Below the pieces are notes generated by a model. That model ran no database searches. It was not told the DNA's origin and saw only the letters and a list, made by a program, of their open reading frames with translations. A stretch of 53,702 nt of DNA. Origin: Prorocentrum cordatum (taxonomy: Eukaryota). Of this stretch, positions 7,210 through 53,129 are shown in pieces. Positions within the stretch are counted from its first letter, which is position 1. Each line of letters starts with the position of its first letter. Made by a program: the position numbers and the translations under genes. Location of the stretch: assembly GCA_963575745.1 (NCBI GenBank), contig CAUYUJ010000296.1, forward strand, positions 62,001-115,702, written 5' to 3'.

Positions 7210-7662
7210 GGGAGGAGGAGGAGGAGGAGGAGGAGGGAGGAGGAGGAGGAGGAGGAGGAGGAGGAGGAGGAGAGGAGGAGGAGGAGGAGGAGGGGGAGGA
7301 GGAGGAGGAGGGAGGAGGAGGAGGAGGAGGAGGAGGAGGAGAGGAGGAGGAGGAGGAGGAGGAGGAGGAGGAGGGGGAGAAGGAGGAGAGGAGGAGGAGG
7401 AGGGAGGAGGAGGAGGAGGAGGAGGAGGAGGAGGAGGAGGAAATGAGGAGGAGGAGGAGGAGGAGGAGGAGGAGGGAGGAGGAGGAGGGGGAGCAGGAGG
7501 GAGGGGAGAAGGAGGGAGGGGGAGGAGGAGGAGGAGGAGGAGGAGGAGGAGGAGGAGGAGGAGGAGGAAATGAGGAGGAGGAGGAGGAGGAGGAGGAGGA
7601 GGAGGAGGAGGAGGAGGGAGGAGGAGGAGGGGGAGGAGGAGGAGGAGGAGGAGGAGGAGGAT
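7210..7662. repeat. (GGA)n microsatellite; representative of many GGA/CCT tracts (e.g. 9340-9520, 15354-15660, 16225-16500, 19530-19990, 20715-21755, 27895-28140, 28827-29243, 30060-30270, 30510-30890, 38460-38960, 40780-41040, 42512-42595, 42815-43044)
   Basis: Direct reading; source of poly-E/G/R/P/L/S ORFs. Confidence 0.97.
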
Positions 7663-9067
7663 AGGCGAGGGGGAGAAGGACAAGCTAGGTGAGCTCGCGT
7701 CAGATCTTACGTCCTACCCCTCCCTCCCATCCCTTCCCATGGCGTAGATCTCCTCTCTATTCGTACACTCGGATGTCGCAGCATGGCATAGCATTACAGA
7801 ACATAGCATGGTGTCATAGCATTACATGGCATAGTATGGTGTTGAAGATCAACGCGTAGCCTGACATAGCATGGCGTGGCGACGCCCCAATTGGGGGGAG
7901 GGGCTTCTGCGGCCCAAAGAACATCGAATCGACACCGAATGTGTAATCAGTTCCAATGTTTTTTTCGGGGGGCTATTTTCTAGATTTTGGAGCCGATTTG
8001 GAAGGACCGAAGACCATGCCATGGCATGGCGCTGGAAATAATGACGCCAGCGCTGCAGCGGGGGCACGAATCGAAACGAGCGGTAACCCGAAAATGAAGC
8101 CAGCGCTTCAGCGATAGCAGCATTTGGAAACAAGCCCAAGCAAAAACCCGTTTCCCGGGAATCCGGTGTAAAAAACCGTGCGCGGAGGGGGGCCGAATGC
8201 TTCCCGGACGCCACCATGGGAGAGAGGAGAGTAGTATTCATGTTGCGTACTTGTGGAAGAGGAGGAAGAGGAGGAGGAAGGGCACCACCGCCTGGACGGG
8301 TGCCCCGCCCGCCACCGCAGGCCACGCCGCGGCAGCCCCGCCTCCGGCGCCGGGGACCTAAGGGGCCGAACCCCCTCCGCACGGGCGCTCCACCAGCACG
8401 CCCCCGCTGCTGCTGCCGCGGGCCCCGCCGCTGCCCCCCCGGCGGGCGGTGCGGCGCCCAACCTCCGCCGCCGCCGCCGCCGCCGCCCCTGCCCGCGCTT
8501 CTCCAGCGCTTCTCCAGCCGCTCCCGGAGCACGGGGCACGACCGTCGCCAGGACGAATGCCTTCTACTACTACTACGAGGCCGCGGCGGGTCGCCGCCAG
8601 GAAGTCGCTTGCCGCAGTCTGTCGGAAATGGCGCTCTCCCCTCGCCGTCTGCGTTGTCGTTGTCGTCGCTGTTGTGGTCAGGGTGGCGCGCCCTCCGCCG
8701 CGCCCCTCGGGGCGTCTCTCTCCGCCGCCCCCCTCGGGGCGTCTCCCTCCTCCCTCTCGTCGCCCCCCCTCGGGGCGCCTGCTCCCTCCCTCGGCAGGCA
8801 GGAGGTGTGGGTGTTGGACGAGGATGCCACGTGCGCAGTGGCGCCGCGCACTTGCGCGCCGCCCATTGGCGGGGTGGCATGCGCGGCTCTGCAAGGGCGA
8901 CGAAAACTGTTTCGCAGGTGCGAGACCCGGCCCCTGTAGAGCGGGCGCGCGCGCGAGCCATTTGCCCCAGCGCCAGAGCCCTAACTGGGACCATGCTGCT
9001 GCCTGCCCTTTGCAAAGGGTGACGGCTCAACGCGGCCAACTTGGGTAAACACAATCGAGCGGAGACC

Positions 9068-9119
<52 letters not shown>

Positions 9120-9192
9120 CTGCTGCTGCTGCTGATGATGATGAGGATGACGATGACGACGACGACGACGATGACGATGATGATGATGATGC

Positions 9193-9240
<48 letters not shown>

Positions 9241-9274
9241 GGATGAGGATGACGATGATGATGATGACGACGAC

Positions 9275-9332
<58 letters not shown>
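9068..9332. repeat. (GAT)n microsatellite
   Basis: Direct reading. Confidence 0.95.
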
Positions 9333-9524
9333 CTAAAAGAGGAGGAAGAGGAGGAAAAGGAGGAGAAGGAGGAAGAGGAGGAGGAGGAGGCGGAGGAGGA
9401 GGAGAGGAGGAGGAGGAGGAGGAGGAGGAAGAGGAGGAGGAGAAGGAGGAGGAGGAGGAGGAGGAGAAGGGGGAGGAGGAGGGGGGGGAGGAGGAGGAAG
9501 AGGAGGAGGGGGAGGAGGAGGAAC

Positions 9525-12500
9525 ATGAAGACCTTTTGCACCTTAGATGGCCCCCTTATGCGTGCAAGCTCAGCCCCACCACCCGCCTCGTTTGCCAGGG
9601 AACCCCATACCATGCTTAGGCGGGAGTTCCCTGCTCATTCTACTTTAGAAGAGGATGATCAGTCACGGCTTCCCCATGAAGGCCCCCAGCGGAACTGTCC
9701 GCAGCGGCGGGCCCAACCTGCGCAACGGTGCCCAACCCAGCGGTCCCAGGACACGGGAGAAGCCTAAAATGCTCTAACTTGCCCTTCAGGGCTGGGAACT
9801 TGCCGAAGCACCCCTGGCATTTCGACTGGGCTCCCACTCCCAAGATATCATGTCCCCGTGCCAACAATCGGGGCTTGCGCTGGTTCGGGGATGTGATCGC
9901 ATGCTTGGCTCGGTGCCGCTCTCGGCCTAGGCGATCGTCTCTGGACCTCGCGCGCGTCAGCACAACATGAAAATTGATCGCCAAGGGCCTCTTGAGCACT
10001 AAATATCTACGGTGGTCCTCTTTCTCGAGGTCGCTTATGTGCTTGGAATCTACCCCCCCCAGCCTTCAGCAGCTCCTGCAAACATGTCTGCCGCTGCATT
10101 CGCAACCAAACTGCGGACGACAGTGCGGTTCCCTCTGGGGGAACGCTCACGGGGGTGGCTCTTGACCCAATGGGCCGTCACATTGCCGTCTCTGGTGCTG
10201 AGCTGGTCCCGCAATTCCTGCCATGTGTCGAGCATCGCCGAGGTGCCAACAAGGGGCCCGGGGTCCTCCCTTCAAGGCATCAACGATTTGATTATAGTCG
10301 GTGCAGAACGGAATTCGGCCAACCGTGAGCTTCAACAGAAAAAAAACAGCAGTGAGCTCAGCACGGTGTGGACTCTGGTGGGGGCCTGCCAGGGTACCAC
10401 GTAGAGCGCCTTTTACTTCCAATGGTCCAGGTCGAAGGTGAACGACGCGCCACCCGCGCCCCCTCGTCCTCCAATCCTTGGCACTCTCTCCTCCAAGCCC
10501 ACCGGCGCCGAAAAACCGTTCACGATCCGTCTACCGCCATTTAGAGCTTCCAGGAACGATCCCCGCGCCCAAACTTTCAGCGAGGCCTCGGGAAGGGGGG
10601 GCCAAAGACCGCCCAAAGGGGGGCGAGCCTACGGGGCCAGAAACACGTGGCATCGTCGGCCCTTTGGGTGGCATCGGGAGCCATGCCTTGGGTTTGGCCA
10701 GCGTGGGGATCATCCAGCTCTCGGTTACAAATGCACTCCCAGAAAATGTGCATGGGCGTCTCGGCCTGGCGTCCGCATCTGGGGCGCAGGCCGCTCGAGT
10801 CATATCATCCATCTTTCAAACGTTGCTCAGGCTACTGTGCTCCAGTCATGAAGTTGCGGAGGATGCCCGCGCCCTCCGTGTCTCCGTCTATGTGCAGCTG
10901 CTTGCGGAGCCTACGGTGAGCAGTCAAGTCAACGGCTACATGCAGGCCGTCTCCACGCAAATGCTCAGCGGCTTTCAACCGCTGTCGTTCTGAAACGCAA
11001 GCAACGACAACGCGCCGCATGACAAAACGCGGACATCTCATCGATCGACTCGAACGATGTCCCCAGGAAGCTCCCAGCGAATGGGGCTCACCAAGGTGCC
11101 TCCCGAGCCTAAGCTGGTAATTATAACCGCGCGGACGGGCCACCTGGCCAGGCTCCGCATATTGTCGGGCCCAGCTCCGCGCATTTTCCGCGCCACCTCA
11201 TATCGGAGCTAATGCCCAGCGCCATCGTGATCAGCTCTCCCAAGCGCCAAAAGGGTAGCGACGCGGGCTCCTGGGCGGTGGTGTGCCGAGCGCCTGGTGG
11301 GCCCAAGTCCCGACTGCAATGGCAGCTGGTCTGAACAATCTGCTAGCCTTCGCGTTAAGGGCGGACAGGGGACTCAGCCTCTTGGACCTCCTCATAGCAT
11401 CCCTCTTTCGATCATTCATTTTCCACATAGTACGCCTACGCCTAGCAGCGGTGCCAACTCCCAGGTCTTTGACAGTGTCCACGAATTTGAAGGGGGAGCC
11501 CGGGCCTGGAAGAGGCAACCCTCGGCGGCCGCTCAAGAGCTTTGCCGAAAAGAACCGCGGCCGACTTCTCAGATATGGCACAACCACGAGCGCGGAATCT
11601 AGCGCAGAGATCGGCGGCTGCAGGAACAGGATGCTGGCGCGAATAGACAGCTGAGCCCTGCAGCGACTGCGTGACGTCATCCACGTGCGCAAAAACTGGG
11701 GCAAGAGGGGGCCGTGCATTGATGTGTTCGCGTATGCCATAAACATACCATTTGATCCATGGTAGTGACTGCGAGCAGCCGACAAGTACAGAGATCCCAC
11801 TGGGTACCGCAGAGGACGCCTTGTTGGTCGCGTCTAGAATCCTAGGGGCTGCGTGCATCATGGGGCCCGGGGTGCAGTGGGAGAAGGGAGTAGTTCAAAT
11901 TCAGCGCCGGCCCTATCAGCTGGACAGGGTCGATCCTGTCGGAAAACTTCTCCATGTCTCAATGGACGGAGGCATGCGCTCCTCCTAACTCTCGAGCGAC
12001 CTCGTGCACCAATTGCCTTTTCATAGCTGCCCTCAGGGCCGGCGGGTTTTTGACAGCGGAATCGCAGAAAGCAGTGTGAGTATCGGTCCACTCCAAGATT
12101 TGATCCCCGCCCCTTAGCATCGTGTAGACCCTATATAGGGTCGGGCATTTGGTGATGGGTCATTCAGAGGTCTAATTCTTGGGCAGTGGCGCGGCGATGT
12201 TCAAAAAGACCTGCTGAGGGAACGTGAGCATCCGCTCGACGTCTAGGTCAATGCCTGCGAGAGGCTCAGGGGCCTCGATTGGGGGCTTCACAGAATCTCT
12301 AGGGGGCCACTCGTCAAACCCAAGGCCAGTGCCCGCATGGCACCACCTCGACACTCGGAGCATGTCCTGGGGCCCAATGGGCTCCATCCCGAGCGCTTCT
12401 TCCTCAGCAGACGGCCGCGGGCGGCCCGTGGCAAACTCCTACTCATTTTTCTCGGCGGCGCTGGGGGTCCAAGACTTCCTCCAAAAACTTCGCGATGAGT

Positions 12501-19989: not shown

Positions 19990-20612
19990 CCAGTGTCAAC
20001 CCAAGAGGCACCAAAGATGTTGCCATTCACCCTCCCTCCAAACTCCCTCCTCATAGGCCCCTTACAACAGTTCATCTTTACTGAGGGAACTGCCTCGTTG
20101 GAAGGCAACTGTTTGAAGACCCTGAAGCATGCCAAGAGATTGTTCTCGGGATTCCAACGCCCCAGATCAACCTGACTGTTGCGTCTTAACAATCCTGAAT
20201 CGTGCCAGAACTCCATTCTTGGGAATTGATCACCGCGAATCAACATAACGTGTGCACCCCCATGGGCCTGAACCCGTCCGAAACAACATTTCTGGTACGT
20301 TGACCATGGGAACCCGTGAAACTCTTGCAACATTTTAATACGAAGGTGTGTGGCGCTAAGGCGAGAACCACACATCGAAAAGGAACCGCCCTCAAGCCGT
20401 GAAGCTCTTGCAAAGTTTTAAAACGGCTGTGCGCGGCGCTGAGGCGAGAGCCACATTTTGAAAACGGCGCGCCCTCACTGCGTGAAACTCTTGCGAATTT
20501 TTAAGACGAATGTGCGCGGCGCTAAGGCGAGCCACATGTTGCAAACCACCCGTCCTCCATAGGTGAAACTATTGCCAAACCTCAGAGTCTCAAGCGAAAC
20601 GCCCGGCCAGCC
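19990..20612 (+). repeat. Dispersed ~600-bp non-coding repeat family with internal gcgcggcgct(a/g)aggcgag subrepeats; other copies 21757-about 22200, 27269-27830, inverted about 51184-51870
   Basis: Shared start cagtg..aaccca.ga..ca.caa.gatgttg and shared end gcgaaacg.ccggcc.gcc (reverse complement at 51184-51210). Confidence 0.75.
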
Positions 20613-26342: not shown

Positions 26343-28166
26343 AGAATCACAAAGGAGGACTGGCCGACCCCCGTGGGCGCTGACCCCCGCCACGTGTCCC
26401 GGGATCACCTCCAGCTGGCTCTCGGGCCGTAGCTCGGGTGCGGGGCGGCTCGCCTTGTGCGACTCTGGGGTATCCCCGGGACGCCGCCGACGAGGCGCAC
26501 ATGACAATGCCAAGCGCCCTGGGTGGGCCCCGACGTGGGCAACCACATGTGAGCGACGATCAACAACGGGCCTTACAAGAGATGGCGTAGCGGCCTTACG
26601 CGGTGGCTTACGCGGGCCGCCCGCGCGGCACGCAGCATTGGAGACGAGCGTGCTTACGCGTGACCTTACGCGGGCAGCTTACGCGCCAATGTCGGCGCAA
26701 ATGACCCCGTCTTTTCGCGTCGCTCATGAGAACCCTGCACCTGCGGCTCAGAATCTGAAGGATGCCTGCAGCCGAGTGAACCCAAGCGGGGGTGTCCGAT
26801 ACCCCGGCGCCGACTGGATCCGCAGGGGTAGAGATCGAGAGCGGTCGAAGACGACACCCACCAAGAACTCCCGAAGTCCCGACCACGCTTGGGCCCGGAC
26901 CCCCGCTTTGGCACGAAGGAGCCAGGTCCTGAGGGAGGAGCGGGTCCTGGACCCTGGCACCCGTCCCCGCAGGACCAGCTCTTCAGCCCGAGTCGGGTCT
27001 TGATGGATGCGCGGTAAGGGTGCGTGCCCCTTGGACGCCTAAGTTGAAGTTCTTTGAGCTAAGGGTTGCCTGAGGATCGGCCGAATAGGCAAGGATCCAA
27101 AGATACCCTTGGGAATGCCACTCTACCTTACCATGCGAACTGACTCTAGCGTGTCGCCGGAACCTTCGCCGCGACACGCTGAGCAACAGTTCCCGACCGT
27201 ACGTCCCTCCCACGACGAGCCCCTGCGACCTTCAGAAGCAGGATGGGGAGGGTGCGGAGGAGAGAAGATCAGTGCAAACCCACGACTCATCAACGATGTT
27301 GGAATCTACTCTCCCTCCAAGCTCCCTCTTCATAGGCCCTTGCAAGGGTTCATTTCCACTGAAGGAAATGCCCCGTTGGGAGACAGCTGTTTGAAGATCC
27401 TGAAGCGTGCCAAAAGACCATTCTCATGACTTCAGCGCCACGAATCAACCTGACTGTTGCGTCTTGGCGATCCTGAATGGTGCCAGAACATCATTCCCGG
27501 GGCTTCGACACCGCGAATCAACGTAACTGTTGCGAACTGACAGTCCTGAATCGTTCCGCAACGCCATTCCTGGTACGTTAGCCATGAGAACCAATAAACC
27601 TTGTGCAATTTTTTAAAACGAATGCGCGCGGAGCTCGGGCGAGAACCACATGTTGAAACATAACCGCTTTTAATCCGTAAAACTTTTGCAAATACTTCAA
27701 CGAATGCGCGCGGCGCTGAGGCGAGAGCTACATTTTGGAAGCGACCCGCCCTCCATCTGTGAAACTGTTGTCAATTTGAATGAGGCTCATAGCTTGTAAA
27801 GGAAGCTCGAGCGAAACGGCCGGCCCGCCCTTCCGACTGGCCTCGGGGTGTGACAGGAAGGAGTTATTCAGAAGGAAAGGAATGGAGAGATGCGAAGGAG
27901 GAGGGAGGGGGAGAGAGGGGGAGGAGGAGGAGGAGGAGGAGGAGGAGGAGGAGGAGGAGGAGGAGGAGGAGGAGGAGGAGGAGAGGAGGAGGAGGAGGAG
28001 GGGCAGGAGGAGGAGGAGGAGGAGGAAGAGGAGGAGGAGGAGGAGGAGGAGGAGGAGGGGGAGGAGGAGGAGGAGGAGGAGAAGGAGGAGGAGGGGGAGG
28101 AGGAGGAGGAGGAGGAGGAGGAGCAGGGAGGAAGGGAGGAGGAGCCAACGGCGAAGCCCGGGCGGC

Positions 28167-42814: not shown

Positions 42815-43071
42815 CCTCCTCCTCCTCCTCCTCCTTCTTCTCCTCCTCCTCCTCCTCTCCCTCCTCCTCCTTTTCCTCCTCGTCCTCCTCCGCCTCCTCC
42901 TCTTCCTCCTCCTCCTCTTCTTCCTCCTCCTCCTCCTCCTCCTCCTCCACCTCCTCCTCCTCCTCCTCCTCCTCCTCCTCCTCCCCTCCCCCCCTCGTGC
43001 CCCTCCCCGGCCTCCTCCTCCTCCTCCTCCTCCTCCTCCTCCTCTGACAGGGCGCTCCAGCCCCGCGCAGC

Positions 43072-43121
43072 CTGTTCTCTTCCTCCATCCTCGACCGGTG
43101 GATGGCCTGTTCCACGAGCTC
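43072..43121 (-). CDS. UBX-domain protein, exon A (ELVEQAIHRSRMEEEN; UIM-like); upstream exons not located
   Basis: gcag|GAG acceptor, AG|gc donor, 50 nt phase 2, joins exon B in frame; 'L..AI..S' resembles a ubiquitin-interacting motif. Confidence 0.68.
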
Positions 43122-43429
43122 CTGCAGGACTGAGGCGAAGGCGGAGAGGACGAGCCTGAGGGAAGGAGAGGAGATAGGCCGAAGGCCCTCGACTCCGTCC
43201 GGGTGTTGCCCAAGGTGGCCCTGGCCAGGCCTCTCCCCTTCCCCTCAACCATGCCCTACACCCGTCACCTACTGCAGCCGAGCAAAAGAACTGCGTGAAA
43301 CTATCATGCGAGAAACCGGAGCTTGGCACCTTTAGTTGGTACGGGTAACCAGAACTTGGCACATTTCGTTAGGGTGGCTGGCAGCCCTCTCCACTTGCTC
43401 AGGGAACCTCCTCCTCCTCCTCCTCCTTC

Positions 43430-43806
43430 GCGCCATCATCACCCTCATGATGATGGTCACCACAATAATCACACCAATCACACGCACACCACAAAATATG
43501 TAACCACCATAACCATCCATCATCAGCGACAGCCTCGTTCCCATCCTCATCTTCACCATCAACATAAACATCATCCGCATCACCATCAACATCAGTATCA
43601 CCACCATTACCACCATACTCATCATACTCATCATCAGCACCACACTGATCATCATCACCATCATCATCACCACCAATATCATCATCAGCAAAGCGAGCAT
43701 CATGATCATCGCAACTATTACTATCACCATCACCAGCACCATCATCATCGTCACCAGCATCGTCATCGTCATCATCGTGATCATCATCATCGTCATTATC
43801 GTCACC

Positions 43807-43840
<34 letters not shown>

Positions 43841-44269
43841 TCATCGCCATCGTCATCATCGTCATCATCATCACCACCAGTACCACCCTCCCAATGTGAC
43901 AATCATGACAATCCATCACCAGCGACAGCCTCATCACCATCACCACCATCACCATCACCATCATCATCATCATCATCGTCATCATCAAATGGGGCGGTTT
44001 TGTTGGATGCTCTGGGTATGGCGAACATAAAAATTATGATTCTGCTGCTGCTGCTGATGATGATGATGCTGCTGCTGGCAATGCTGATGCTGATGATGCT
44101 GCTGATGATGGTGATGATGCTGATGGTACTGCTGCTGATGATGACGAAGCTGATGATGATGTTGTTGATGAGGATGATGCTGCTGCTGATGATGATGACG
44201 ATGATGCTGGTGAAGAAGAACATGATGATGCTGCTGCTGCTGATGATGATGATGCTGATGATGATGATG
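43430..44269. repeat. (CAT/CAC)n tract followed after a ~50-bp spacer by an opposite-polarity (GAT/GCT)n tract
   Basis: Direct reading. Confidence 0.92.
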
Positions 44270-44379
44270 ATCCCCCCGGGCTTCGTTTTCCAGCCAGACG
44301 GCGTAGCACGAGTCGACGACCTTTGCGAAACGGAGCGGGCGAGGCCAGAACATTCGGGAGCCGAGCTCGCACACCTCCC
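44270..44379 (-). repeat. Terminal repeat B2 (110 bp, identical to B1 at 44544-44653)
   Basis: atccccccgggcttcg...gctcgcacacctccc occurs twice. Confidence 0.96.
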
Positions 44380-44452
44380 CTTCAAAAACAACTAACGAGG
44401 AAGAAACCTTAAATTGAAAGAAAAACAGGGCGGCGGTTGGGGTAGATGGGGG

Positions 44453-44495
44453 TGAAGCTAGAGCCAAGATAGGACGGAAGACGCAAGGATGCTGC
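44453..44495 (-). repeat. Repeat A2 (43 bp, 41/43 identical to A1 at 50911-50953)
   Basis: tgaagct(a/t)gagccaagat(a/t)ggacggaagacgcaaggatgctgc. Confidence 0.93.
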
Positions 44496-44682
44496 CACGG
44501 CTGTCCCACTCCGCTCTCGAGGATTTCCGTACAAGTACAAGGCATCCCCCCGGGCTTCGTTTTCCAGCCAGACGGCGTAGCACGAGTCGACGACCTTTGC
44601 GAAACGGAGCGGGCGAGGCCAGAACATTCGGGAGCCGAGCTCGCACACCTCCCAAACCTGGCGGACCTCCAGGACCACCCGA

Positions 44683-45458
44683 TCAGCAATCTGGCCCCGA
44701 CGGGGCCGCAAACACCTTCTTGTCGAACAACTCGGCTTTAGACGAGGCCCACGCATTGTAGTAGATAGAAGCCAGGGCTTTACAAAGTCCAGGAGGATAA
44801 GGCTCGGCGATCTTGGACCAGAATACACCTTTGTCGTTTTTCCCTTGGATGGGGATGTGCGGCTGGCCGGTGCGCTTGCACAGGCCACGCCTGGTGCCGA
44901 GACAGCGACCCTCGGCGAGGGCGTCCATGCACAGCCCCGTGCTGAGGAAACTGGTCGACTTCCTCCACTGGGCGCCCCGCATGCAGAAATCGGTGACGGT
45001 GAAATTGATCTTGTTGGATTTTCGAAGTCTCTGCATGGCGGGGCAAATCCAGATGCGGCTCCGGGCGGGGTTCTCAAGAGTAGCTGGTATTCCCAAAAGC
45101 ATAGCATCCCGCATCACCGCCACGGAGAAAAACATTAACAAGTTGCCGACGCGAACCTTGTCGGCGTCGGCGGGGCTCAGGTCGTCGAGGCCCATGGGTG
45201 GCGAGTTAGACCTCACGGTGGAGGGCCTGGGGGCACATCGCGTGCCCGCGAAAACGAGGGGCATGGTGTTCCCAAGTGGGCGCCAATCACGATGCCTGAG
45301 CGGATCCATCCTCTGATGAGGCTGCGGTTCCGGGCCAGACGAAGATCGTAATCGGCACACGGCTCCACGTCCCAGAGAAGAACGTTCACGCCCTCCCTCG
45401 CGACCGCTTGGCCGAGCCGGCCTGGCCCCAAGAAGACCTCGAGGAAGAAGCGGACCTG
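44683..45458 (-). CDS. C5 cytosine DNA methyltransferase domain (one frameshift near 45215-45225)
   Basis: Motif I FLEVFLGPGRL, II LLWD, IV HLGTPCPSFS (catalytic PC), VI LENP, VIII-like QWRKST, X-like YPPGLCKALA, in canonical order. Confidence 0.9.
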
Positions 45459-46675
45459 GGGCCGGGGGCCGCCGGACAAGGCCGGCCGCGGACGATGGAG
45501 GCCATCGAGCGCTCGCAGGACAGCGCGTGGGCGCGGAGGTCCTCGGGCAGCTTGAGCAGCACCTGGCCGATGCGGCTGCCCTTCTCGTAGCGCCTGACCG
45601 AAGCCCGCGACCGCCAGCGCCCGCGGCGCCTCACGTCCCCCAGGCTCCTGAAGCCCCCGGCGGAGTCGTGCGAGGCGCCGCCGTGCCTGAGCTGGTACAG
45701 GTGGACGTCGCCGAGGTACTCGTCCAGCTTGAGGCTCCGCGCGACGCCGCACGCCGCCGTCACCAGGTCCTTCAGGGCGAAGTCGAAGATCGGCGAGCCC
45801 GGGCTCCGGCCCTGGCAGAGGGCCTTGAGCGCCGGACCGAGAGGGGCATGCCGCTCCAAGTCCAGGCGCATGGACTCGTCGAACTCGTTCGTCTTTGACG
45901 ACCTCCCGACCTCCTGCGCGTGAAGCGTGATGGCCCAGCAGGGGGCGCTCGCCACGCCCAGCACCGGGGGTATGAGGTCCACCACCCTCACGTTGAGAAT
46001 CTCGCCTGGCCGAAGGTACAGCTCGAAGATCACGACGATCGCGATCGCGAAGGGCAGCTTCCCCAACCTGACCAGCTCGTTGGCGATCAGGGCCACCGCC
46101 TCGCGCGGCAGCGGAAGCCGCGACTGGGGAGGGCAGCAGCGCCTGAACCCCTGGAGGGCCCTCCGGCTCCTGGGCATGAGGGCCCCCGCGGACTTCTGGA
46201 GGCCCGTGAAGAACGTCACCGCCGCGAAGCCCCACTGGGCCGAGCCCAGGTTCTCGCCGCCCAGGTGCAGCGCGTCCAGCCACCCCACGAGCTGCTGGTC
46301 GACGCCCGCCTCGGAGGTCGCCACCGGGACGGCGAGCCACGCCAGGAACTCGGCGAACAGCGACTGGTACTTCTGCCGCGTCCGGGGCCGAACCGAGGCG
46401 CTCTCGAGCACCGTGAGCCCGCCCACTGTGACAGCAGAAGCCCTCCGCCGGGCCGCGACGTCGGCCACCGTCTGGCGCTTCCTCTTGGCCGGAGGAGGGC
46501 GGGCAACGGCTGGCCGCCGGCGCGGCGGGCCGGGGGCCCGCGCAGACGTAGAGAGGTTCGCCGTCATGGCACCACGGGTGGCCTCCCGCCTGTCCAGCGG
46601 CGAGGCCAGCGGGGCCGTCGGCGCCGCCGTCCGCGCGCCGGTCGAGGTCGGTGCGGGGCTGGCCCGCAGGAGCAT
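45386..46675 (-). CDS. Tyrosine recombinase (integrase) of the element
   Basis: YLRPGE (Arg), SSKT (Lys), YQLRHGGAS (HxxR box), GRW, RRYEK (catalytic Tyr); upstream core-binding-like helices; the true start may be the later ATG (MTANL). Confidence 0.92.
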   Translation of the reverse strand: MLLRASPAPTSTGARTAAPTAPLASPLDRREATRGAMTANLSTSARAPGPPRRRPAVARPPPAKRKRQTVADVAARRRASAVTVGGLTVLESASVRPRTRQKYQSLFAEFLAWLAVPVATSEAGVDQQLVGWLDALHLGGENLGSAQWGFAAVTFFTGLQKSAGALMPRSRRALQGFRRCCPPQSRLPLPREAVALIANELVRLGKLPFAIAIVVIFELYLRPGEILNVRVVDLIPPVLGVASAPCWAITLHAQEVGRSSKTNEFDESMRLDLERHAPLGPALKALCQGRSPGSPIFDFALKDLVTAACGVARSLKLDEYLGDVHLYQLRHGGASHDSAGGFRSLGDVRRRGRWRSRASVRRYEKGSRIGQVLLKLPEDLRAHALSCERSMASIVRGRPCPAAPGPRSASSSRSSWGQAGSAKRSRGRA

Positions 46676-46689
46676 GTTTGGAGAAATCG

Positions 46690-49054
46690 AGCGGGCTCGG
46701 AGCAGCTGGAGCCCAGAGGCCTCGGGAAGGAGAGTCCGCGACGTTCCACTCCGAGGGCAACCATCGATAATGCAAGGCCGAACCGGTCGCGAGCGAGAGG
46801 GCCGCGATCGCCTGGGTGACCCGCATCATGCTACGGCTGTCGCTCCGAAACCGCGTCACCGCCCCGGCCGTCGACTGCGAGTCCCCCAGGACCAGCGCGT
46901 GCTTCCCGAGGTTCCGAGACGAACGAAGGAGATGACGAAAGCCGTACAGGGTGGCCCTGGCCTCGTGCACGGCGATGCTCTCCCCCTTGCGCCTCCACGG
47001 GAAGCGACCGACGACGGACCACTGCAGCTCGATCATATCCCGCGGGACCTCTGGGAAGTCCACGACCCGCCTGACCCGACCGAACCCGAAGACGTCGCCG
47101 GGGCTGTCCAGGACACCTGAGCCAGCTGAGGGGGGCTGAGGGGGTGCGCACTCGGGCCCCGGGACGTCGTTGGCGGCGGCGATCCAGGGGGCAGCCTCGC
47201 GGGCCTCCCCCGCCAGGGCCGCCGCCGCCTCGGCTTTACGAGCGTGGTCCAGCGCGTGGCGACGAGGACCCATGGCAGCGCCGACCCGACCCCAGCGCCA
47301 TCGCTCCGAGGTCCGGCCGACGCTCCGGGCCAGAGAGGCCCCACACTGTGCGGCGCACGCCCCCAGCCCCCACTCACTAGCATCGACGGCCGCCACCTCG
47401 TCGCTCCAGCCCGCCCGGAGGTCCCGCCAGAGGAGAGGAGCAAGCCCATCCCAGAGAGAGAGAGTTCGCGACGTACCGAAGCCCACAGACGCTCTTCCTG
47501 GGTGTAATTCTTCCTGACGAAGGCATAGCACGACCAGAACGGCGATAACCCCTCCCGGCGGGCCAGGGAGAGGAAGACAAGATGCCCCAGGAGGCGCTCC
47601 AGGTCACGCCCAGAGCACCCCCCCCTCCGGAGGACCGCCCGAATTGCCAGGCGGGCCCTCCAGAGGCGGACAGGGGTGGCAGCCACGCGGCCCCGGGGCC
47701 CGTCGATCTGCCACCCCAAAACCTGGGCCACCTTGTCCTCCCCAGAATACTCCTCCTCATGGACGACCAGACCCCGCCCTTCAAGAGCACGAATAGCATC
47801 AGCAACGAGAGAGCGAACAGCACTGGCGTCGGTAGAGACGGCGATGAAGTTGTCCACGTACTGCGAATGGCACGCTCGATGAAGGTCCAGCGTCACCTGC
47901 TTATCTACAATGCGGTTCTCCGGGGAAGCTCCGGCTTGTTCCACAATGCGCTCGTGGGCCGTTTGACGCATCCACAGGGCCCAGCTCCAGCCCATCGGTA
48001 TCACAGACAGTCGGGGGTAGACCATGGCTGACGGAGGAACGGGCTTCCCATTGACCCTAGTACACCCCGCCGCCCCCGCCCGCGCGGCCCTGAAACAGAA
48101 AAACGGTCTCAAATCGGGAGGCAACTGCATATGATAAAAGGCGTCTGACAAATCGGCTCCGCCAACATGCAACTCCTCACCCTCGCCGAGCTCCGGCCCT
48201 GCCAGGCCTTCGCCGGTGAGGAGGGGAACGGGGGCGGGGTCCTGGAAATGACAGTTGCTTCTACGACAGTCAACTACCAGCCGGAGCTTCCCGGATTTCT
48301 CGTGCGCGAAAAATGCTTCAACCCTTTCCTTGCATGAGAAGCTGAAATCTACCATGCCTCGCTGCTGCAATGCACGGATGAACTCCTCAAAAGCCGCGAC
48401 CCGACGCAGCTTAGGATCACTATGCGGCACCGCGACCTGATAATTTTTCAAACGAGTATCTACCTCACTAGACGGTAGCAATCGGCTTTGGACGAAGTCC
48501 CTAATCATGTCCGACCCGCCCGCGCCCCGAAAATCCTCGAGCGGTACCGGTGCCGGCGAGCCAGAGGGGGGCGAGACGCTAGCGAGGTTATAGGAACCGA
48601 GCACGGCAGAGTCCACATCATACCAGCTCGCCACGCGAAGCTTCCGGAGAGCTTCTGCGGGAGTCACCTCCGGCGGAGGCGGGCCGAGAGCAGCGACGGA
48701 GTCCCGGGCCCTATCAAGACAGTGACGCTGGCCCAGCGAAACAAAAACTGCTCGGTCGGCGCCCTGGCCGACGGGAGGCTGGTCCTGGTGAAGATAGAGC
48801 GAGTTCAAGGCGTGGACGGCGCGATCGCAGTCCAACTCAAAACTCTCGCGCTTACCCAGACGCTGCCGGACTGCACGGGAGAGCCCCCCGTCGGTACCCC
48901 GATACCGCTCCACCACCGGCCGCGGTAAAGGCAAGATGTCGCGGGGTACCGCGCGGGAGGGCTCGTCTCCGTAATTAAAAGCTTCGTAGGGCGGCGGCGC
49001 ACGGGGCCCGCGCGCGTCCCGGGCGCCGGGAGCGCGAGGCGCAGAAGTATGCAT
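46690..49054 (-). CDS. Reverse transcriptase + DIRS-type RNase H (frameshift in the (GA)n run at about 47453-47464)
   Basis: RT: KSGKLRLVVDCRRSN, ADLSDAFYHM, IPMGWSWA, QYVDNF; RNase H: VDASEWGLG, IAVHEARA, LGDSQ, RWLPSEWNVADSPSR; the end given is the domain end, as the frame stays open to 45213. Confidence 0.92.
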
Positions 49055-49166
49055 GAGGGGGAGAAACCCGGAGGACAGGAGGAGGGGGACGAACAGAGTA
49101 CAAGAGGCCTGCACTGCACCCTCAGAACAGCGCGGGCCAACCTCAGATGTAGATGTCGGCGGCGGC

Positions 49167-50467
49167 TCACGACTTGTCGCCCCCGCCTTTCTTTCGGGCG
49201 GCTTCTCGCTCCTCGCGGCCCTTCCGGAGGGCCTTGTTGAGCTGCGCCTCCCGCTCCACGTCAACGCGAACCACGTCGAGGAGCTCCAGACAGATCATCA
49301 GCTGCCCCGAGCCCCGGCTGAGCCCCGAGAACGCCTGCTGCTCCTCGAGGCTGAGGCGGCCACTGTACCCTTTCGACTCCGCCTCCTTCGCCCGCTCGAG
49401 GTGGGCGAATTCAATGGTTTGCATTCTCCTCAGCAGCATCTCCACCATGACCAGATTCGTGCCGTCGAGCTGGTCGACGAGGAGGCCGGCCTTGACCGCC
49501 GCCGTCTCGAGGTGCTCGGCCACCCCCCAGGCGTTGGGCTCCAGGCGGCGCAGCGATCGAAAACGATCATGGTGAGCGTCCAAGCTGCCGCCCTCCGAGT
49601 TGATGTGCTCCAGGCACCACCCCGCCGTCCGGACGCCACCGAGCGTCCAGTCCTTGCCGAAGTCCTCCTTCGTCACCGCGGCACACATGTCAGCCCACGT
49701 GCGCTCCCGCCGCCCAAGCCTGTTGCGGCGCACCGGGAGGATGCGGGCGTCGCTGGCCACGATGCGGTCGAAGAACTCCTGCTCGTCTGCCGGCCGCAAG
49801 TACTGCACGAAGAGGCCCGAGCCGTCCGCAAGCCGGTGGATGTCCTTGTCCCCGATGGCGCCCGCTCCGGCCTGGTGGGGCACGTCGTCCCCCACGCGGA
49901 AGCCGCCGAAGCACTCGGCGGCGACCCAGCGAGCAGCACCACGTCCGTCAGCCGCGCCAACAGCCACAACCCCCTGCAGGGGCCCGACAGGCGGCGGCAC
50001 ACGCGCGGGCGCCGCGGCTCCGGGAGCAGCGGGCGCGCCCGCAGCAGCCACCACCGCGGCAGCCCCCGCGCCGGCCGCGGGTCCGCCCACCGGGACCGGC
50101 AGCAGGCAGTGGGCGTCCACCGCCGGGGCCGCCACGCCTTGGGCCGCAGCCCGGCGCACTCGCCCGCGGCCTCGGGCACCGCCGCGGCGAGGAAGGCGGC
50201 CCGCTGCGCCACCGTCGGCTCCGCCCGGAAGCGGTAGACGTCCCCGGGAGGGATGCCGTCCGGCAGCACGTTGAAGGCCGTCGCCCACCTCACAGCCGCG
50301 ACGTCGGCCGAGCCTGCACTGTAGTCCTCCGCGTACACGTGCCGGTCGGGGGTGGCGATCACGAAGAGCTTACCAGCCGATAACGCCACCTGACCCAGCA
50401 CCAGCCTCTGGTGCCAGACCTGCCGGGGGCCGGCCCCGATGTACAGCACGTACGCCCACGTCGCCAT
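49167..50467 (-). CDS. Gag-like ORF of the element (one frameshift near 50150)
   Basis: ATG 50467 MATWAYVLY..WHQRLVL..ATPDRHVYAE; continues in the 49167-50288 frame with helical and coiled-coil C-terminus; position upstream of RT; Gag identity is positional inference. Confidence 0.7.
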
Positions 50468-50882
50468 CGCTCACGGGGGCAGGCCCTGGCTCCGAGTCGT
50501 CCTGGATGGCGGCCCGCCTGCGCCTGCGACAGCACCGAGCCGCGCGCCGAGCGCTCAGCAGCGCCGCGGGCGCCGCGAGGCCGAAGGCCACGCCGCACAC
50601 GAACCAGAGCAGCCCCCAGCCGCGGCCGGCGCACGGGGCTGCCTCCGGGGCCTGCGGGCAGGCCGGCCACGCCGCCGGCCCAGCCGCCGGCGCGAGGCCC
50701 GGGCAGGCCGGGCAGGTCGGGCACGAGAGGCCCGGGCACGCGGGCGCCTGGCAGGCGCCGCAAGCCTGGCAGGTGAGCGCCGGGCAGGCCGGGCACGGCG
50801 GCGACGCTGGGCACCGCGCGATGTAGTTCACCAAGCCCTGCGCGGCGTACTCCCCCCCGCGCTGCACCACCTAGTCGAACAT
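50370..50882 (-). CDS. ORF0: small Cys/Pro-rich single-pass membrane protein (probable TGG>TAG at codon 4)
   Basis: ATG TTC GAC TAG GTG at 50882; repeated CPxC motifs, hydrophobic GWGLLWFVCGVAFGLAAPAALLSA, then CC and RRRRR; lies between repeat A1 and gag, overlapping the gag start. Confidence 0.6.
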
Positions 50883-53129
50883 GGGGGGTCCGCCGCGGGC
50901 GCCGCGCCTTTGAAGCTTGAGCCAAGATTGGACGGAAGACGCAAGGATGCTGCGATGATGATGAGGATGACGAGGGGGAGGAGCGAAGGCGGGGAGGAAT
51001 GAAATGAGACCAATGAAGGGAAGGCGGGGAAAGAGGGAGCGGAGAAGGGGGCGAGGGAGGGCGAATCCCCCTCCTCCTTCCTCGTTTTCCATATCCCCTC
51101 TCCTCATCCCCCTCCGTCTATTTCTCCCTGCGTCCATACACGTGACTTCACTTATCCTCACCTGGCCATCATGCGTCTTGGTAGGGCGGGCCAGACGTTT
51201 CGCCTGAGATGGCCCTGGCGCTTGAACATTGCAACAAACACACGGGTGGATGGGGCGGCCAACACGTGGTTATCGCCGTTGCGCCGCGCACATTCGTCTT
51301 AAACGTTACCAACTTTTGCACGGATGGGAGGGGGGGTTCAAACTGTGAGCAAGCATTCCAACATGGGGGGGGGGGTTACCAGCCTTTGCACGGATGTGCG
51401 ACATTGGTATTCTAAGTTGCCAACAGTTACACGGATGGAGGGCGGTTGCGTTTTAAACGACAGCGCTCGCCTTAGCGCCGCGCATACTTGTCTTAAACAC
51501 TTCCGAGTACAACGTTGCCTTCAAGGGGGTGACCAACATGTGGTTCTCGCCTTTACGCTGCGCGCCTTCGTCTTACACAAGTCCAACAATTACGCGGGTG
51601 GAGCGGGGCGGTTTCCATCAATTGACTCTCGCATTAGCGCCGCGCATATTCGTAGTACAAGTCACAAACAGTCACACGGATGGGGGGAGGGGGCGCTTTC
51701 CAAAGGTGGCTATCTCCTTACGCCCGCGCGCGTATGTTTGAACAACTCCAAACGACGGTTGTAAAGATGGAGAGGCAATTCCTTCTCTAAGTGTGGCTCT
51801 TGCCTCAGCGCCGCGCACATTCATGTGAAACAACTTTCAACGGCTATATGTATGGAGGGCGGTTCGTTTTCGAAGCTGAACTTCCACCCTAATTATCATG
51901 TCCAGACGTTTTAGAGTTGTGCAGCGGCTGCACGGATGCGCGACGGCTCAATTTCAATTCGGCGTTCTCGCTGGATGCTTCCTTGGACTTTCTGGTCCCA
52001 CTTCGTGACCGCCCTTATAGCCAGAGGCATGGATGAAGGCTCCTTTTCAAACGGGGCTTTCGCCTGAATTGCAGGACCATGGCACGCCCGTCTTACAAAA
52101 GGGGCCCTTTCCGCAGTGAGCAGGAATTCTTGTAGGGGGCTAATGAGTAGGGGACTCGGGACGGGTGGGCGTACTGCAACATTGTTGATTCATCTTTGGG
52201 TTTACTCTGGTCCTCTTCTTCTCCTACTCCTCTTCCTCCTCGTACATCACGCTCCTTTATCCTCCCCGTCCTCCCCCGCCTCTTTGTCATCCTCCATTTT
52301 CTGTGTCCCCACGTCCTCCTCATCCTCACCCCACAATCTCTCCCCACTCCTCACACATCCAAACTTTTCAAGCCGTCACATTCAAAACTTGTGACCGCTT
52401 TTCTCAACACGTTTTACCCTGCACCGTGTTGGAGGGGGTGAAGGGACAGAAGCGACCCCGAGATGCTGAGAAGAACGACGCACATTTGGCGCGACACTTC
52501 CGAGCCGCCAAAACATATAATCCCCTTTCTTCTTGACGCGCCCGGCATGGGAACGGGAAGAACGAGAACGATTCCCAACAGCAGACGTTGTCCAACATCG
52601 ACAACGTCCGCTGCTGGGTAATTCGGCGACTTTCTCCCGACGACGCCCGCGGCGACGCCAACAGCGAACTCTACTCACGTGAACAAGAGTTGCTGTCGGT
52701 TTTCGTCCCCGCTCCCTTCCTTCCCACTTCGGTCCTCCAGGTCGGTACCGATCGGTCCTCTGCAGCGACCTTTTCGGCGGCGCCAAGGGTCTGGGTTCCC
52801 AGACGCCTCCACAAATTTCCAGGGGTCACAAGATCCCCGCAGGTCCCGGGAAGCCTCCGCTGAGATCCTCGGAGGCACCCCGAGGGCCTACAAACTTCCA
52901 AAAAAACGGCGGCGCTCGAGGGGGGGAACTGAGAGGGAGAAGGCCTTCTCAGAAGGTTCGGAAGTCCCCCGGCCTTCTGAGAAGTTTTCTAAGCCTTCCC
53001 CAAAGACCAACAAACCTCGTCAGAAGGCGCGAGGGCTTCTGAGAAGTCCCGCCGCCTTCTGAGAAGGCCTTGCTCTTCTTCTTTCCCCTCTCGCTCGCCG
53101 CCGAAAAAACGTTCAAAAACCTTGAGAAC

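Follow-up and report, generated by a model that had tools for sequence, protein, structure and literature searches.

Retrotransposons that use a tyrosine recombinase are described as built from gag, reverse transcriptase (RT)/RNase H and recombinase genes, to which a methyltransferase is sometimes added. One such element of dinoflagellates, SymbioDIRS-Dnmt3 of Symbiodinium, is transcribed with a bias to its 5' region (de Mendoza et al. 2018, PMC5890265). Here we describe a DIRS-like retroelement in a stretch of 53,702 nucleotides of Prorocentrum cordatum DNA (GenBank assembly GCA_963575745.1, contig CAUYUJ010000296.1, positions 62,001 to 115,702), hereafter the window, whose numbering is used throughout. 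The element lies on the minus strand at ~44270-50953, and its first open reading frame (ORF), at 50882-50370 upstream of gag, encodes a small predicted membrane protein. As far as the text of the SymbioDIRS paper goes, the two elements share a dinoflagellate host, the repeat order A-coding-B-A-B, a divergent RT scarcely seen by Pfam, a separate ORF for a tyrosine recombinase (a putative one in the present element) and a conserved extra domain that ends pol (PMC5890265). The 5' region favoured by transcription in SymbioDIRS-Dnmt3 corresponds to the location of the small ORF and gag in the present element. In the main text of that paper, figures and supplements aside, no gag and no membrane ORF is mentioned (the words "gag", "capsid", "transmembrane" and "additional ORF" do not occur), and "transmembrane" is likewise absent from the text of the other paper found to mention SymbioDIRS, with the same two parts set aside.

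Two other systems resemble the small protein itself. The sORF2 protein of insect MDG1-group long terminal repeat (LTR) retrotransposons moves capsids between cells (Voichek et al. 2025, preprint, PMC11952523); that study describes it as a transmembrane (TM) protein of 63-107 residues whose ORF precedes gag and which carries a basic patch as well as a myristoylation motif. The FAST proteins of reoviruses, such as p10, are outlined as fusogens of ~100-200 residues with an ecto/TM/endo layout, a polybasic motif and acylation, either at a palmitoylated dicysteine or by N-terminal myristoylation (PMC12945298). In the full-text literature searched, outside figures, supplements and Repbase, no membrane ORF has been described for tyrosine-recombinase retrotransposons or dinoflagellate elements.

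With a probability of roughly 0.6, we take 50882-50370 to be a decayed copy of a genuine accessory membrane-protein gene of dinoflagellate DIRS-like retrotransposons, made together with gag by leaky scanning. Conservation of the gene and selection on its protein are shown, as are a distribution of hydrophobicity and charge like that of membrane proteins and the AUG-free stretch that follows. A preliminary description of the window, made from the sequence alone, had already singled out this ORF as an extra 5' ORF of a DIRS-type element, and the conservation in sister and related elements reported below, together with the split repeats, agrees with that assignment.

The small ORF of the window copy

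The ATG of the small ORF lies 28 nt past repeat A1 and is the earliest ATG after it, so that the ORF is the first of the element, as the preliminary description had it. The translation contains 15 Cys, 12 of them before a hydrophobic stretch (about 11 had been counted), one within it and two after it. The hydrophobic stretch, LLWFVCGVAFGLAAPAALL at residues 91-109, reaches a Kyte-Doolittle (KD) 19-residue peak of 2.17 and is followed by RRAARCCRRRRR, which matches the single helix, dicysteine and basic stretch noticed earlier. A premature stop had been suspected at codon 4; it is a TAG in the window and a Trp codon in sister copies. This copy of the small ORF is a pseudogene, and the window copy of the element is dead and cannot work: besides the stop at codon 4 it has a gag whose frame is lost near 50160, within an Ala/Pro-rich linker at 49973-50169, and a pol split over three frames. 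Three sequencing runs, none of them RNA, contain part of the window (shares 0.24, 0.17 and 0.11, with 162, 405 and 60 contigs placed), and no variant fell inside the small ORF among the 40 listed of 491 rows that compare run contigs with the window. In run X1 the cover at 50588-50761 is thin or absent and is not interpretable.

The small-ORF stretch is 77% GC, and ORFs of 106-188 residues are found in five of its six frames. An open stretch of at least 166 codons is retained in 223 of 2000 dinucleotide shuffles, and the length of the ORF is therefore no evidence by itself. An equally strong hydrophobic stretch appears in only 1 of the 2000 shuffles and at least 15 Cys in 9; among the open stretches of the window that are GC-rich, 5 of 36 are at least as hydrophobic. 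The GC content by codon position is 0.727/0.732/0.935 upstream of the gag ATG and 0.717/0.515/0.919 in gag, with the same third-position bias. Tandem arrays inside the ORF are short only (9 nt x 2.8 and 12 nt x 2.5).

One might thus suspect that, in the Prorocentrum lineage, the ORF arose by chance in a very GC-rich leader and looks conserved only through young copies. The five open frames, the frequency with which shuffles stay open, the larger differences here than in gag among close copies and the absence of relatives in a search of near-length proteins would all fit such an origin. The third-position GC of 0.935, however, marks the small-ORF frame, and the hydrophobic stretch is rare in shuffles. 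Moreover, two distant relatives at 41-45% identity retain start, end, length, TM helix and six Cys columns, and a counterpart sits at the same place and in the same frame in every related element examined. We therefore regard a chance ORF as unlikely.

Sister copies and Prorocentrum-type relatives

Proteins identical or 95% identical to translations of the window are recorded as Prorocentrum cordatum. The search of near-length proteins with the small ORF gave no match among 2387 candidates, and that of longer proteins gave two, P0019 (the window's own gene model) and P0001. Five further models came from the 90% cluster of P0001 and a neighbouring cluster. All these sister models, from P. cordatum, are colinear with the small-ORF frame, and the five that reach codon 4 have Trp there, with a start of the form M-L/F-D/E-W. 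The ORF is thus conserved in sister elements, a test that the preliminary description had set beforehand as able to refute it. Compared to the window, five close copies are 84-93% identical in the small ORF and 92-99% in gag, and the more diverged P0024 is 75% identical in the small ORF and 78-81% in gag; the small ORF therefore changes faster than gag.

A HMMER scan of 1.84 billion representatives revealed two matches, the stand-alone proteins P0025 (156 residues, E 6.8e-12, 45% identity) and P0026 (157 residues, E 5.3e-5, 41% identity), both aligned end to end and encoded on short ENA contigs. They share the layout of the window protein: the Cys/Pro-rich part is followed by a TM helix (KD 2.43 and 2.30) flanked by basic residues and then by the tail. 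Neither has an internal Met. The N-terminal W/Y..RCP motif is retained, the TM helix is made of different residues, and six Cys columns are common to all three proteins. The preliminary description had likened the ORF to FAST proteins by its TM helix, dicysteine and polybasic tail. A helix followed by basic residues is indeed predicted; the dicysteine is not conserved, since only four of seven P. cordatum copies have it and P0025 and P0026 both lack it. Together with locus L001, the window protein and these two make up what we call the Prorocentrum type. Proteins of the window family start with MF, ML or MW and have no Gly2.

In the deposited gene models of P. cordatum the small ORF is joined to gag by tiny introns, and the joins vary (AAIQ|VWHQ, DGDV|WHQ and ALVK|VWHQ). 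As they are placed differently between models, we take them to be predictor artefacts. The window's own model P0019 (~43000-50830, minus strand) is chimeric: it starts inside the small ORF, is led by predicted introns through gag, RT, recombinase and the last domain, and has a host UBX-domain gene (PF00789) at its end.

A counterpart ORF in related metagenome elements

An alignment of gag drew 35 loci from metagenome contigs, 28 of them with a mapped gag start. At 25 of these 28 loci an ORF ends 14-104 nt inside gag (22 whole, three cut by the contig end), and the remaining three (L016, L023 and L033) carry broken remnants found with a hidden Markov model (HMM) of the family. The length shared with gag is 2 mod 3 in every case, including the 98 nt in the window. 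The gene order, small ORF, gag, RT, RNase H/recombinase and C-terminal domain, is identical in the long loci and the window. L012 is a whole element with four open ORFs, its pol being a single ORF of 1278 codons, and its small ORF starts 16 nt past A1; its repeats A (82 nt) and B (116 nt) are 100% and 99% identical, respectively.

These ORFs are 144-202 codons long. The 21 distinct whole ones, with a GC content of 0.50-0.54, have no in-frame stop, against 86-171 stops in each of the five other frames; as the loci are ~50% GC, base composition does not account for the open frames. The encoded proteins are only 17-35% identical to each other. All 21 begin with Met1-Gly2, 16 have a second, N-terminal hydrophobic segment, and a Thr/Pro/Ser-rich middle part precedes a strong helix (KD 1.97-3.08). 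A tail motif, LAxxQLAExRLRR, of which the A..QLAE.R part is invariant, lies immediately upstream of the gag ATG. Met1, Gly2 and the invariant tail residues are written with mixed synonymous codons, including both CGN and AGR for Arg, which indicates that selection acts on the protein. Identity by codon position is 0.61/0.85/0.37 in the tail motif and 0.35/0.46/0.29 elsewhere. Pairwise dN/dS was dropped for this family, since its closest pair, two identical pairs aside, is 46% identical and synonymous sites are saturated.

The main TM helix is predicted in all 25 sequences of both families (KD 1.85-3.08), as it would have to be for the membrane protein suggested earlier. Net charge is higher after than before the helix in 20 of the 25; over the 15 post-helix residues it amounts to +8 in the window, +2 to +5 in the other Prorocentrum-type proteins and -2 to +3 in the metagenome family. 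The AlphaFold model of the L006 protein has a mean predicted local distance difference test score (pLDDT) of 76.5 and a predicted template-modelling score of 0.33, with helices at 3-57, 83-108 and 132-150 and disordered linkers.

As a separate observation, L030 carries a HLGTPCNTFSRARD-type motif upstream of gag, at 1-900; possible explanations are that another element ends there and that the domain order differs. A second architecture with a different domain order has been reported, in the text of the SymbioDIRS paper, for that element group (PMC5890265).

An AUG-free stretch leads to the gag start

Between the small-ORF ATG and the gag ATG, a distance of 418-493 nt, the 21 loci together contain a single ATG in any frame. 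Shuffles of the same stretches predict ~157, equal-length stretches after the gag ATG hold 217, and 0-7 ATGs occur within the 150 nt just upstream of the small-ORF start. In addition, in all 22 of 22 loci, as in the window, the gag frame read back from its ATG meets a stop after 0-38 codons. The ATG-poor stretch and the closed gag frame are therefore the signature of a bicistronic mRNA in which gag would be reached by leaky scanning. As the AUG-free stretch spans the whole coding region of the small protein, the latter has no internal Met.

Viral bicistronic mRNAs with a small membrane protein first, such as HIV-1 vpu-env and the p10/p17/sigmaC transcript of avian reovirus S1, are translated by leaky scanning. 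The arrangement here is alike in that the first AUG belongs to a small membrane protein, the structural gene would be reached by scanning, and intervening AUGs are avoided. It is unlike them in that the downstream gene is a retrotransposon gag and that the AUG-free stretch spans the whole coding region of ~420-490 nt.

The constant overlap, with gag always in the +1 frame, would also suit a Gag fusion, made through a small splice or a +1 frameshift, in which the small ORF supplies the membrane-anchoring N-terminus; deposited models do join the two with tiny introns. The ATG-free stretch, by contrast, indicates separate initiation at the gag AUG, a stop stands 0-38 codons upstream of the gag ATG, relatives of gag begin at that Met, and the joins vary as predictor artefacts would. 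Such a fusion is thus quite improbable. Least credible is a role in cis only, in which the small ORF would throttle the translation of gag as a long upstream ORF and encode a functionless peptide. It lies in the path of ribosomes scanning to gag and overlaps the gag AUG, as this would require; nevertheless, proteins otherwise only 17-35% identical have kept Gly2, the C-terminal motif and the TM helix as amino acids despite turnover of synonymous codons.

Proposed function and points against it

Under the accessory-gene reading, the first ORF after A1, with the first AUG of the element mRNA, would give a small protein of about 145-180 residues. Its outer part would be variable and of low complexity, Cys/Pro-rich in the Prorocentrum type and Thr/Pro/Ser-rich in the others. 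A single strong membrane helix would come next, with basic residues behind it, and then a tail on the cytoplasmic side, the end of whose coding region overlaps the gag start in the +1 frame. The positive-inside rule suggests that the tail faces the cytoplasm. Ribosomes passing the first AUG would scan the AUG-free stretch to the gag AUG, and the small protein and gag would therefore be made together by leaky scanning. Our best guess is that the protein anchors or directs gag, or particle assembly, at a cellular membrane via the conserved tail, i.e. membrane targeting in trans.

Several observations weigh against this interpretation. Among the Prorocentrum-type sisters, the small ORF differs two to three times more than gag at the protein level, which fits weaker constraint or faster CpG decay. 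The P0024 model is without the entire Cys-rich part; either a genuine deletion or an intron called by the gene predictor may account for this. At the small-ORF ATG, position -3 is a purine in 15 of the 21 loci and position +4 a G in every one, a context that by the vertebrate rule would be strong and not leaky. In the window itself the ATG-free stretch is not significant (none seen, 1.5 expected, none in 419 of 2000 shuffles). The predicted model of the window protein is poor (pLDDT 50), except for a helix at 83-123 with a pLDDT of 70-80. Finally, there is no detectable homology between the Prorocentrum-type and metagenome families (hhalign probability 0.3%, and their HMMs do not cross-hit), so the two are counterparts by position, frame and layout only.

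Architecture of the element

The features of the element are given in Table 1. The split direct repeats in the order A-coding-B-A-B that define the DIRS arrangement are present in both the window and L012, and contigs from other runs carry the flanks of A2 at the edges of A1. Between the repeats follow the small ORF, a gag-like ORF, RT, the continuation of pol, a nested putative tyrosine recombinase and a methyltransferase-like last ORF.

Table 1. Features of the DIRS-like element in the window, from its 5' to its 3' end.
Feature	Position	Strand	Remarks
Terminal repeat A1, 5' end of element	50911..50953	-	95% identical to A2
Small membrane-protein ORF, 171 codons, TAG at codon 4, pseudogene	50370..50882	-	TAA at 50372-50370
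Cys/Pro-rich part, residues 24-84, 12 Cys	50631..50813	-	predicted lumenal/outer side; disordered in model
Hydrophobic membrane helix (predicted), residues 91-109	50556..50612	-	KD 2.17; reached by 1/2000 shuffles
Juxtamembrane basic cluster and dicysteine, RRAARCCRRRRR	50514..50549	-	net charge +8 in 15 post-helix residues
Overlap of small-ORF tail and gag start, 98 nt	50370..50467	-	gag ATG at 50467, gag in +1 frame
Gag-like ORF, broken in window copy	49167..50467	-	N part in frame of ATG 50467; C part in another frame, to 49167
Reverse transcriptase ORF	47033..49264	-	RVT_1 E 0.056; tblastn to 30 loci
RNase H region / pol continuation	45213..47531	-	frame differs from RT ORF: pol frame-broken in window copy
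Putative tyrosine recombinase ORF, nested inside pol in another frame	45386..46675	-	weak PF00589
C-terminal pol domain, cytosine-methyltransferase-like motifs	44683..45360	-	frame-shifted from preceding ORF; motifs read by eye
Repeat B1, 110 nt	44544..44653	-	100% identical to B2
Repeat A2	44453..44495	-	95% identical to A1
Repeat B2, 3' end of element	44270..44379	-	100% identical to B1

The reverse transcriptase is recognised by RVT_1 in the pol of L012 (E 1.1e-9, 38.8 bits against a cut-off of 29.6) and more weakly in the window and in sister P0022 (E 0.002). By tblastn, the window RT is 33-57% identical to that of the related loci, except for L035 at 26%. For the tyrosine recombinase, PF00589 matched 5 of 10 aligned members, with a best E of 2.7e-5, which for the one shown stays under the 27.1-bit cut-off, and a PDB search with the recombinase profile gave no match. 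Read by eye, the R, H..R, W and Y columns are invariant, with a spacing that we take to be Cre-like. The recombinase ORF lies wholly within the pol ORF in another frame, both in the window and in L012 (9364-10521 inside 7455-11291), where both frames are open over ~385 codons as a long dual-coding stretch.

The C-terminal domain of pol is conserved over 270 residues with 63% mean column identity. In an alignment of eight loci (window 44683-45360 and 45213-45450) the motifs FxGxG, HLGTPCxSFSRARD and ENPxRSR are invariant; they presumably correspond to motifs I, IV and VI of cytosine-5 methyltransferases. Neither Pfam nor PDB gave a match to this domain, a profile search included, or confirmed an identity with Dnmt3.

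The Ala/Pro-rich linker varies between copies of gag. In contigs from runs X1 and X3, 197 or 196 nt are skipped there (49972/49973 to 50170); the linker is missing from models P0002 and P0024, and it is in frame in P0001 and P0020-P0023. An insertion in the window copy was considered for the 197-nt skip and dropped: the sisters have an in-frame linker, another subfamily is without it, and the window copy has a frame-breaking indel.

Trinucleotide repeats of the GAT/CAT/CTG type adjoin both ends of the element (50954-50982 and 44033-44273), and in all three runs the word depth of the bin 50936-51022 is thousands-fold above its neighbours. The repeats may reflect a target preference, or may be only a common microsatellite. 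Upstream of the element, a repeat array with a period of ~80-87 bp and two conserved blocks per unit occupies 51230-51950, with weaker relatives at 20375-20578 and 27696-27781. An assembly gap, a run of 100 N, is found at 1909-2008.

Significance

With a conserved membrane-protein gene, the plan of tyrosine-recombinase retrotransposons would gain a new module, and these elements a link to cellular membranes hitherto known only for LTR elements that carry env or sORF2. The AUG-free coding stretch gives a testable prediction of two proteins from one dinoflagellate mRNA. In addition, the abundance of these elements in bloom-forming and reef-symbiont-like dinoflagellates means that the gene may be a widely mis-annotated piece of dinoflagellate gene catalogues; the deposited model in the window fuses it to a host UBX-domain gene.

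Comparison with small membrane proteins of viruses and LTR elements

Searches with the small protein point to no described family. Pfam has none for the proteins of the window, P0020, P0025 and P0026, and gave chance-level matches only for the 21 metagenome members; the best E of a profile search against PDB was 0.043. The ESM Atlas gave no usable match for the window protein, and for the L006 protein only clusters of small bacterial membrane proteins at 0.91-0.92, a lead at most. Scans of viral contigs and of genome contigs found no relatives of the small ORF, and the structure search called for in the preliminary description found no counterpart in BFVD, where none of the 12 matches listed was at E<=0.001.

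By layout, the protein resembles the FAST protein p10 in its size, polybasic motif and Pro-rich stretches and, in the window copy, a membrane-proximal dicysteine (as far as p10 is outlined in PMC12945298). The charge after the helix in the window agrees with the FAST polybasic motif, and the ecto/TM/endo topology is predicted from charge only (20 of 25 sequences). It differs from the FAST proteins in being encoded by a retrotransposon and not by a non-enveloped fusogenic virus, and in an ectodomain two to three times longer: 46-107 residues precede the helix, 86 in the window, compared to about 30 (PMC11952523). Moreover, no 11-residue hydrophobic patch of the kind held in the p10 cystine noose was identified (PMC12945298).

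Compared to sORF2 as described in the text of the preprint (PMC11952523), both are short TM ORFs upstream of gag in forward orientation, with a basic patch after one TM helix, a Met-Gly start (in the metagenome family) and a divergence so fast that only the layout is recognisable. They differ in that the present element is predicted to use a tyrosine recombinase and is not an LTR/integrase element, lives in a host of another kingdom, and encodes a protein of 144-202 and not 63-107 residues with a long pre-helix part and, in 16 of 21 cases, the second hydrophobic segment. Two further features of sORF2 are lacking: with regard to the MGxxxS/T myristoylation motif, MG is present in 21 of 21 metagenome-family proteins and Ser/Thr at position 6 in two, and the conserved tail motif, the part scanned for an amphipathic tail, has a hydrophobic moment of only 0.05-0.27. 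Owing to the pre-helix length, the total length, position 6, the tail motif and the dicysteine, the protein is a member of neither the FAST nor the sORF2 family by their own criteria.

A fusogen of either kind, which would bridge or merge the membranes of adjoining cells, or of gametes, and thereby let particles of the element travel from one cell to the next, is hard to credit, though the small size, the single TM helix with its juxtamembrane basic patch, the position upstream of gag, the invariant Met-Gly of the metagenome family and the p10-like dicysteine of the window protein would suit it. To the differences set out above are added the absence of Gly2 in the Prorocentrum type, the lack of a structural counterpart at E<=0.001 among the BFVD matches listed, and the unicellular hosts. 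An envelope, fusogen or egress role, as put forward in the preliminary description, is an analogy in architecture. We likewise consider it unlikely that a retrotransposon of a unicellular alga makes its own membrane-merging protein of this type with Gag, as an independently evolved form of envelope-independent horizontal spread; if true, the element would pass between cells, e.g. at gamete contact or in dense symbiont populations. By analogy, sORF2 would be the nearest functional parallel, and the protein of this element perhaps works like sORF2 or the FAST proteins.

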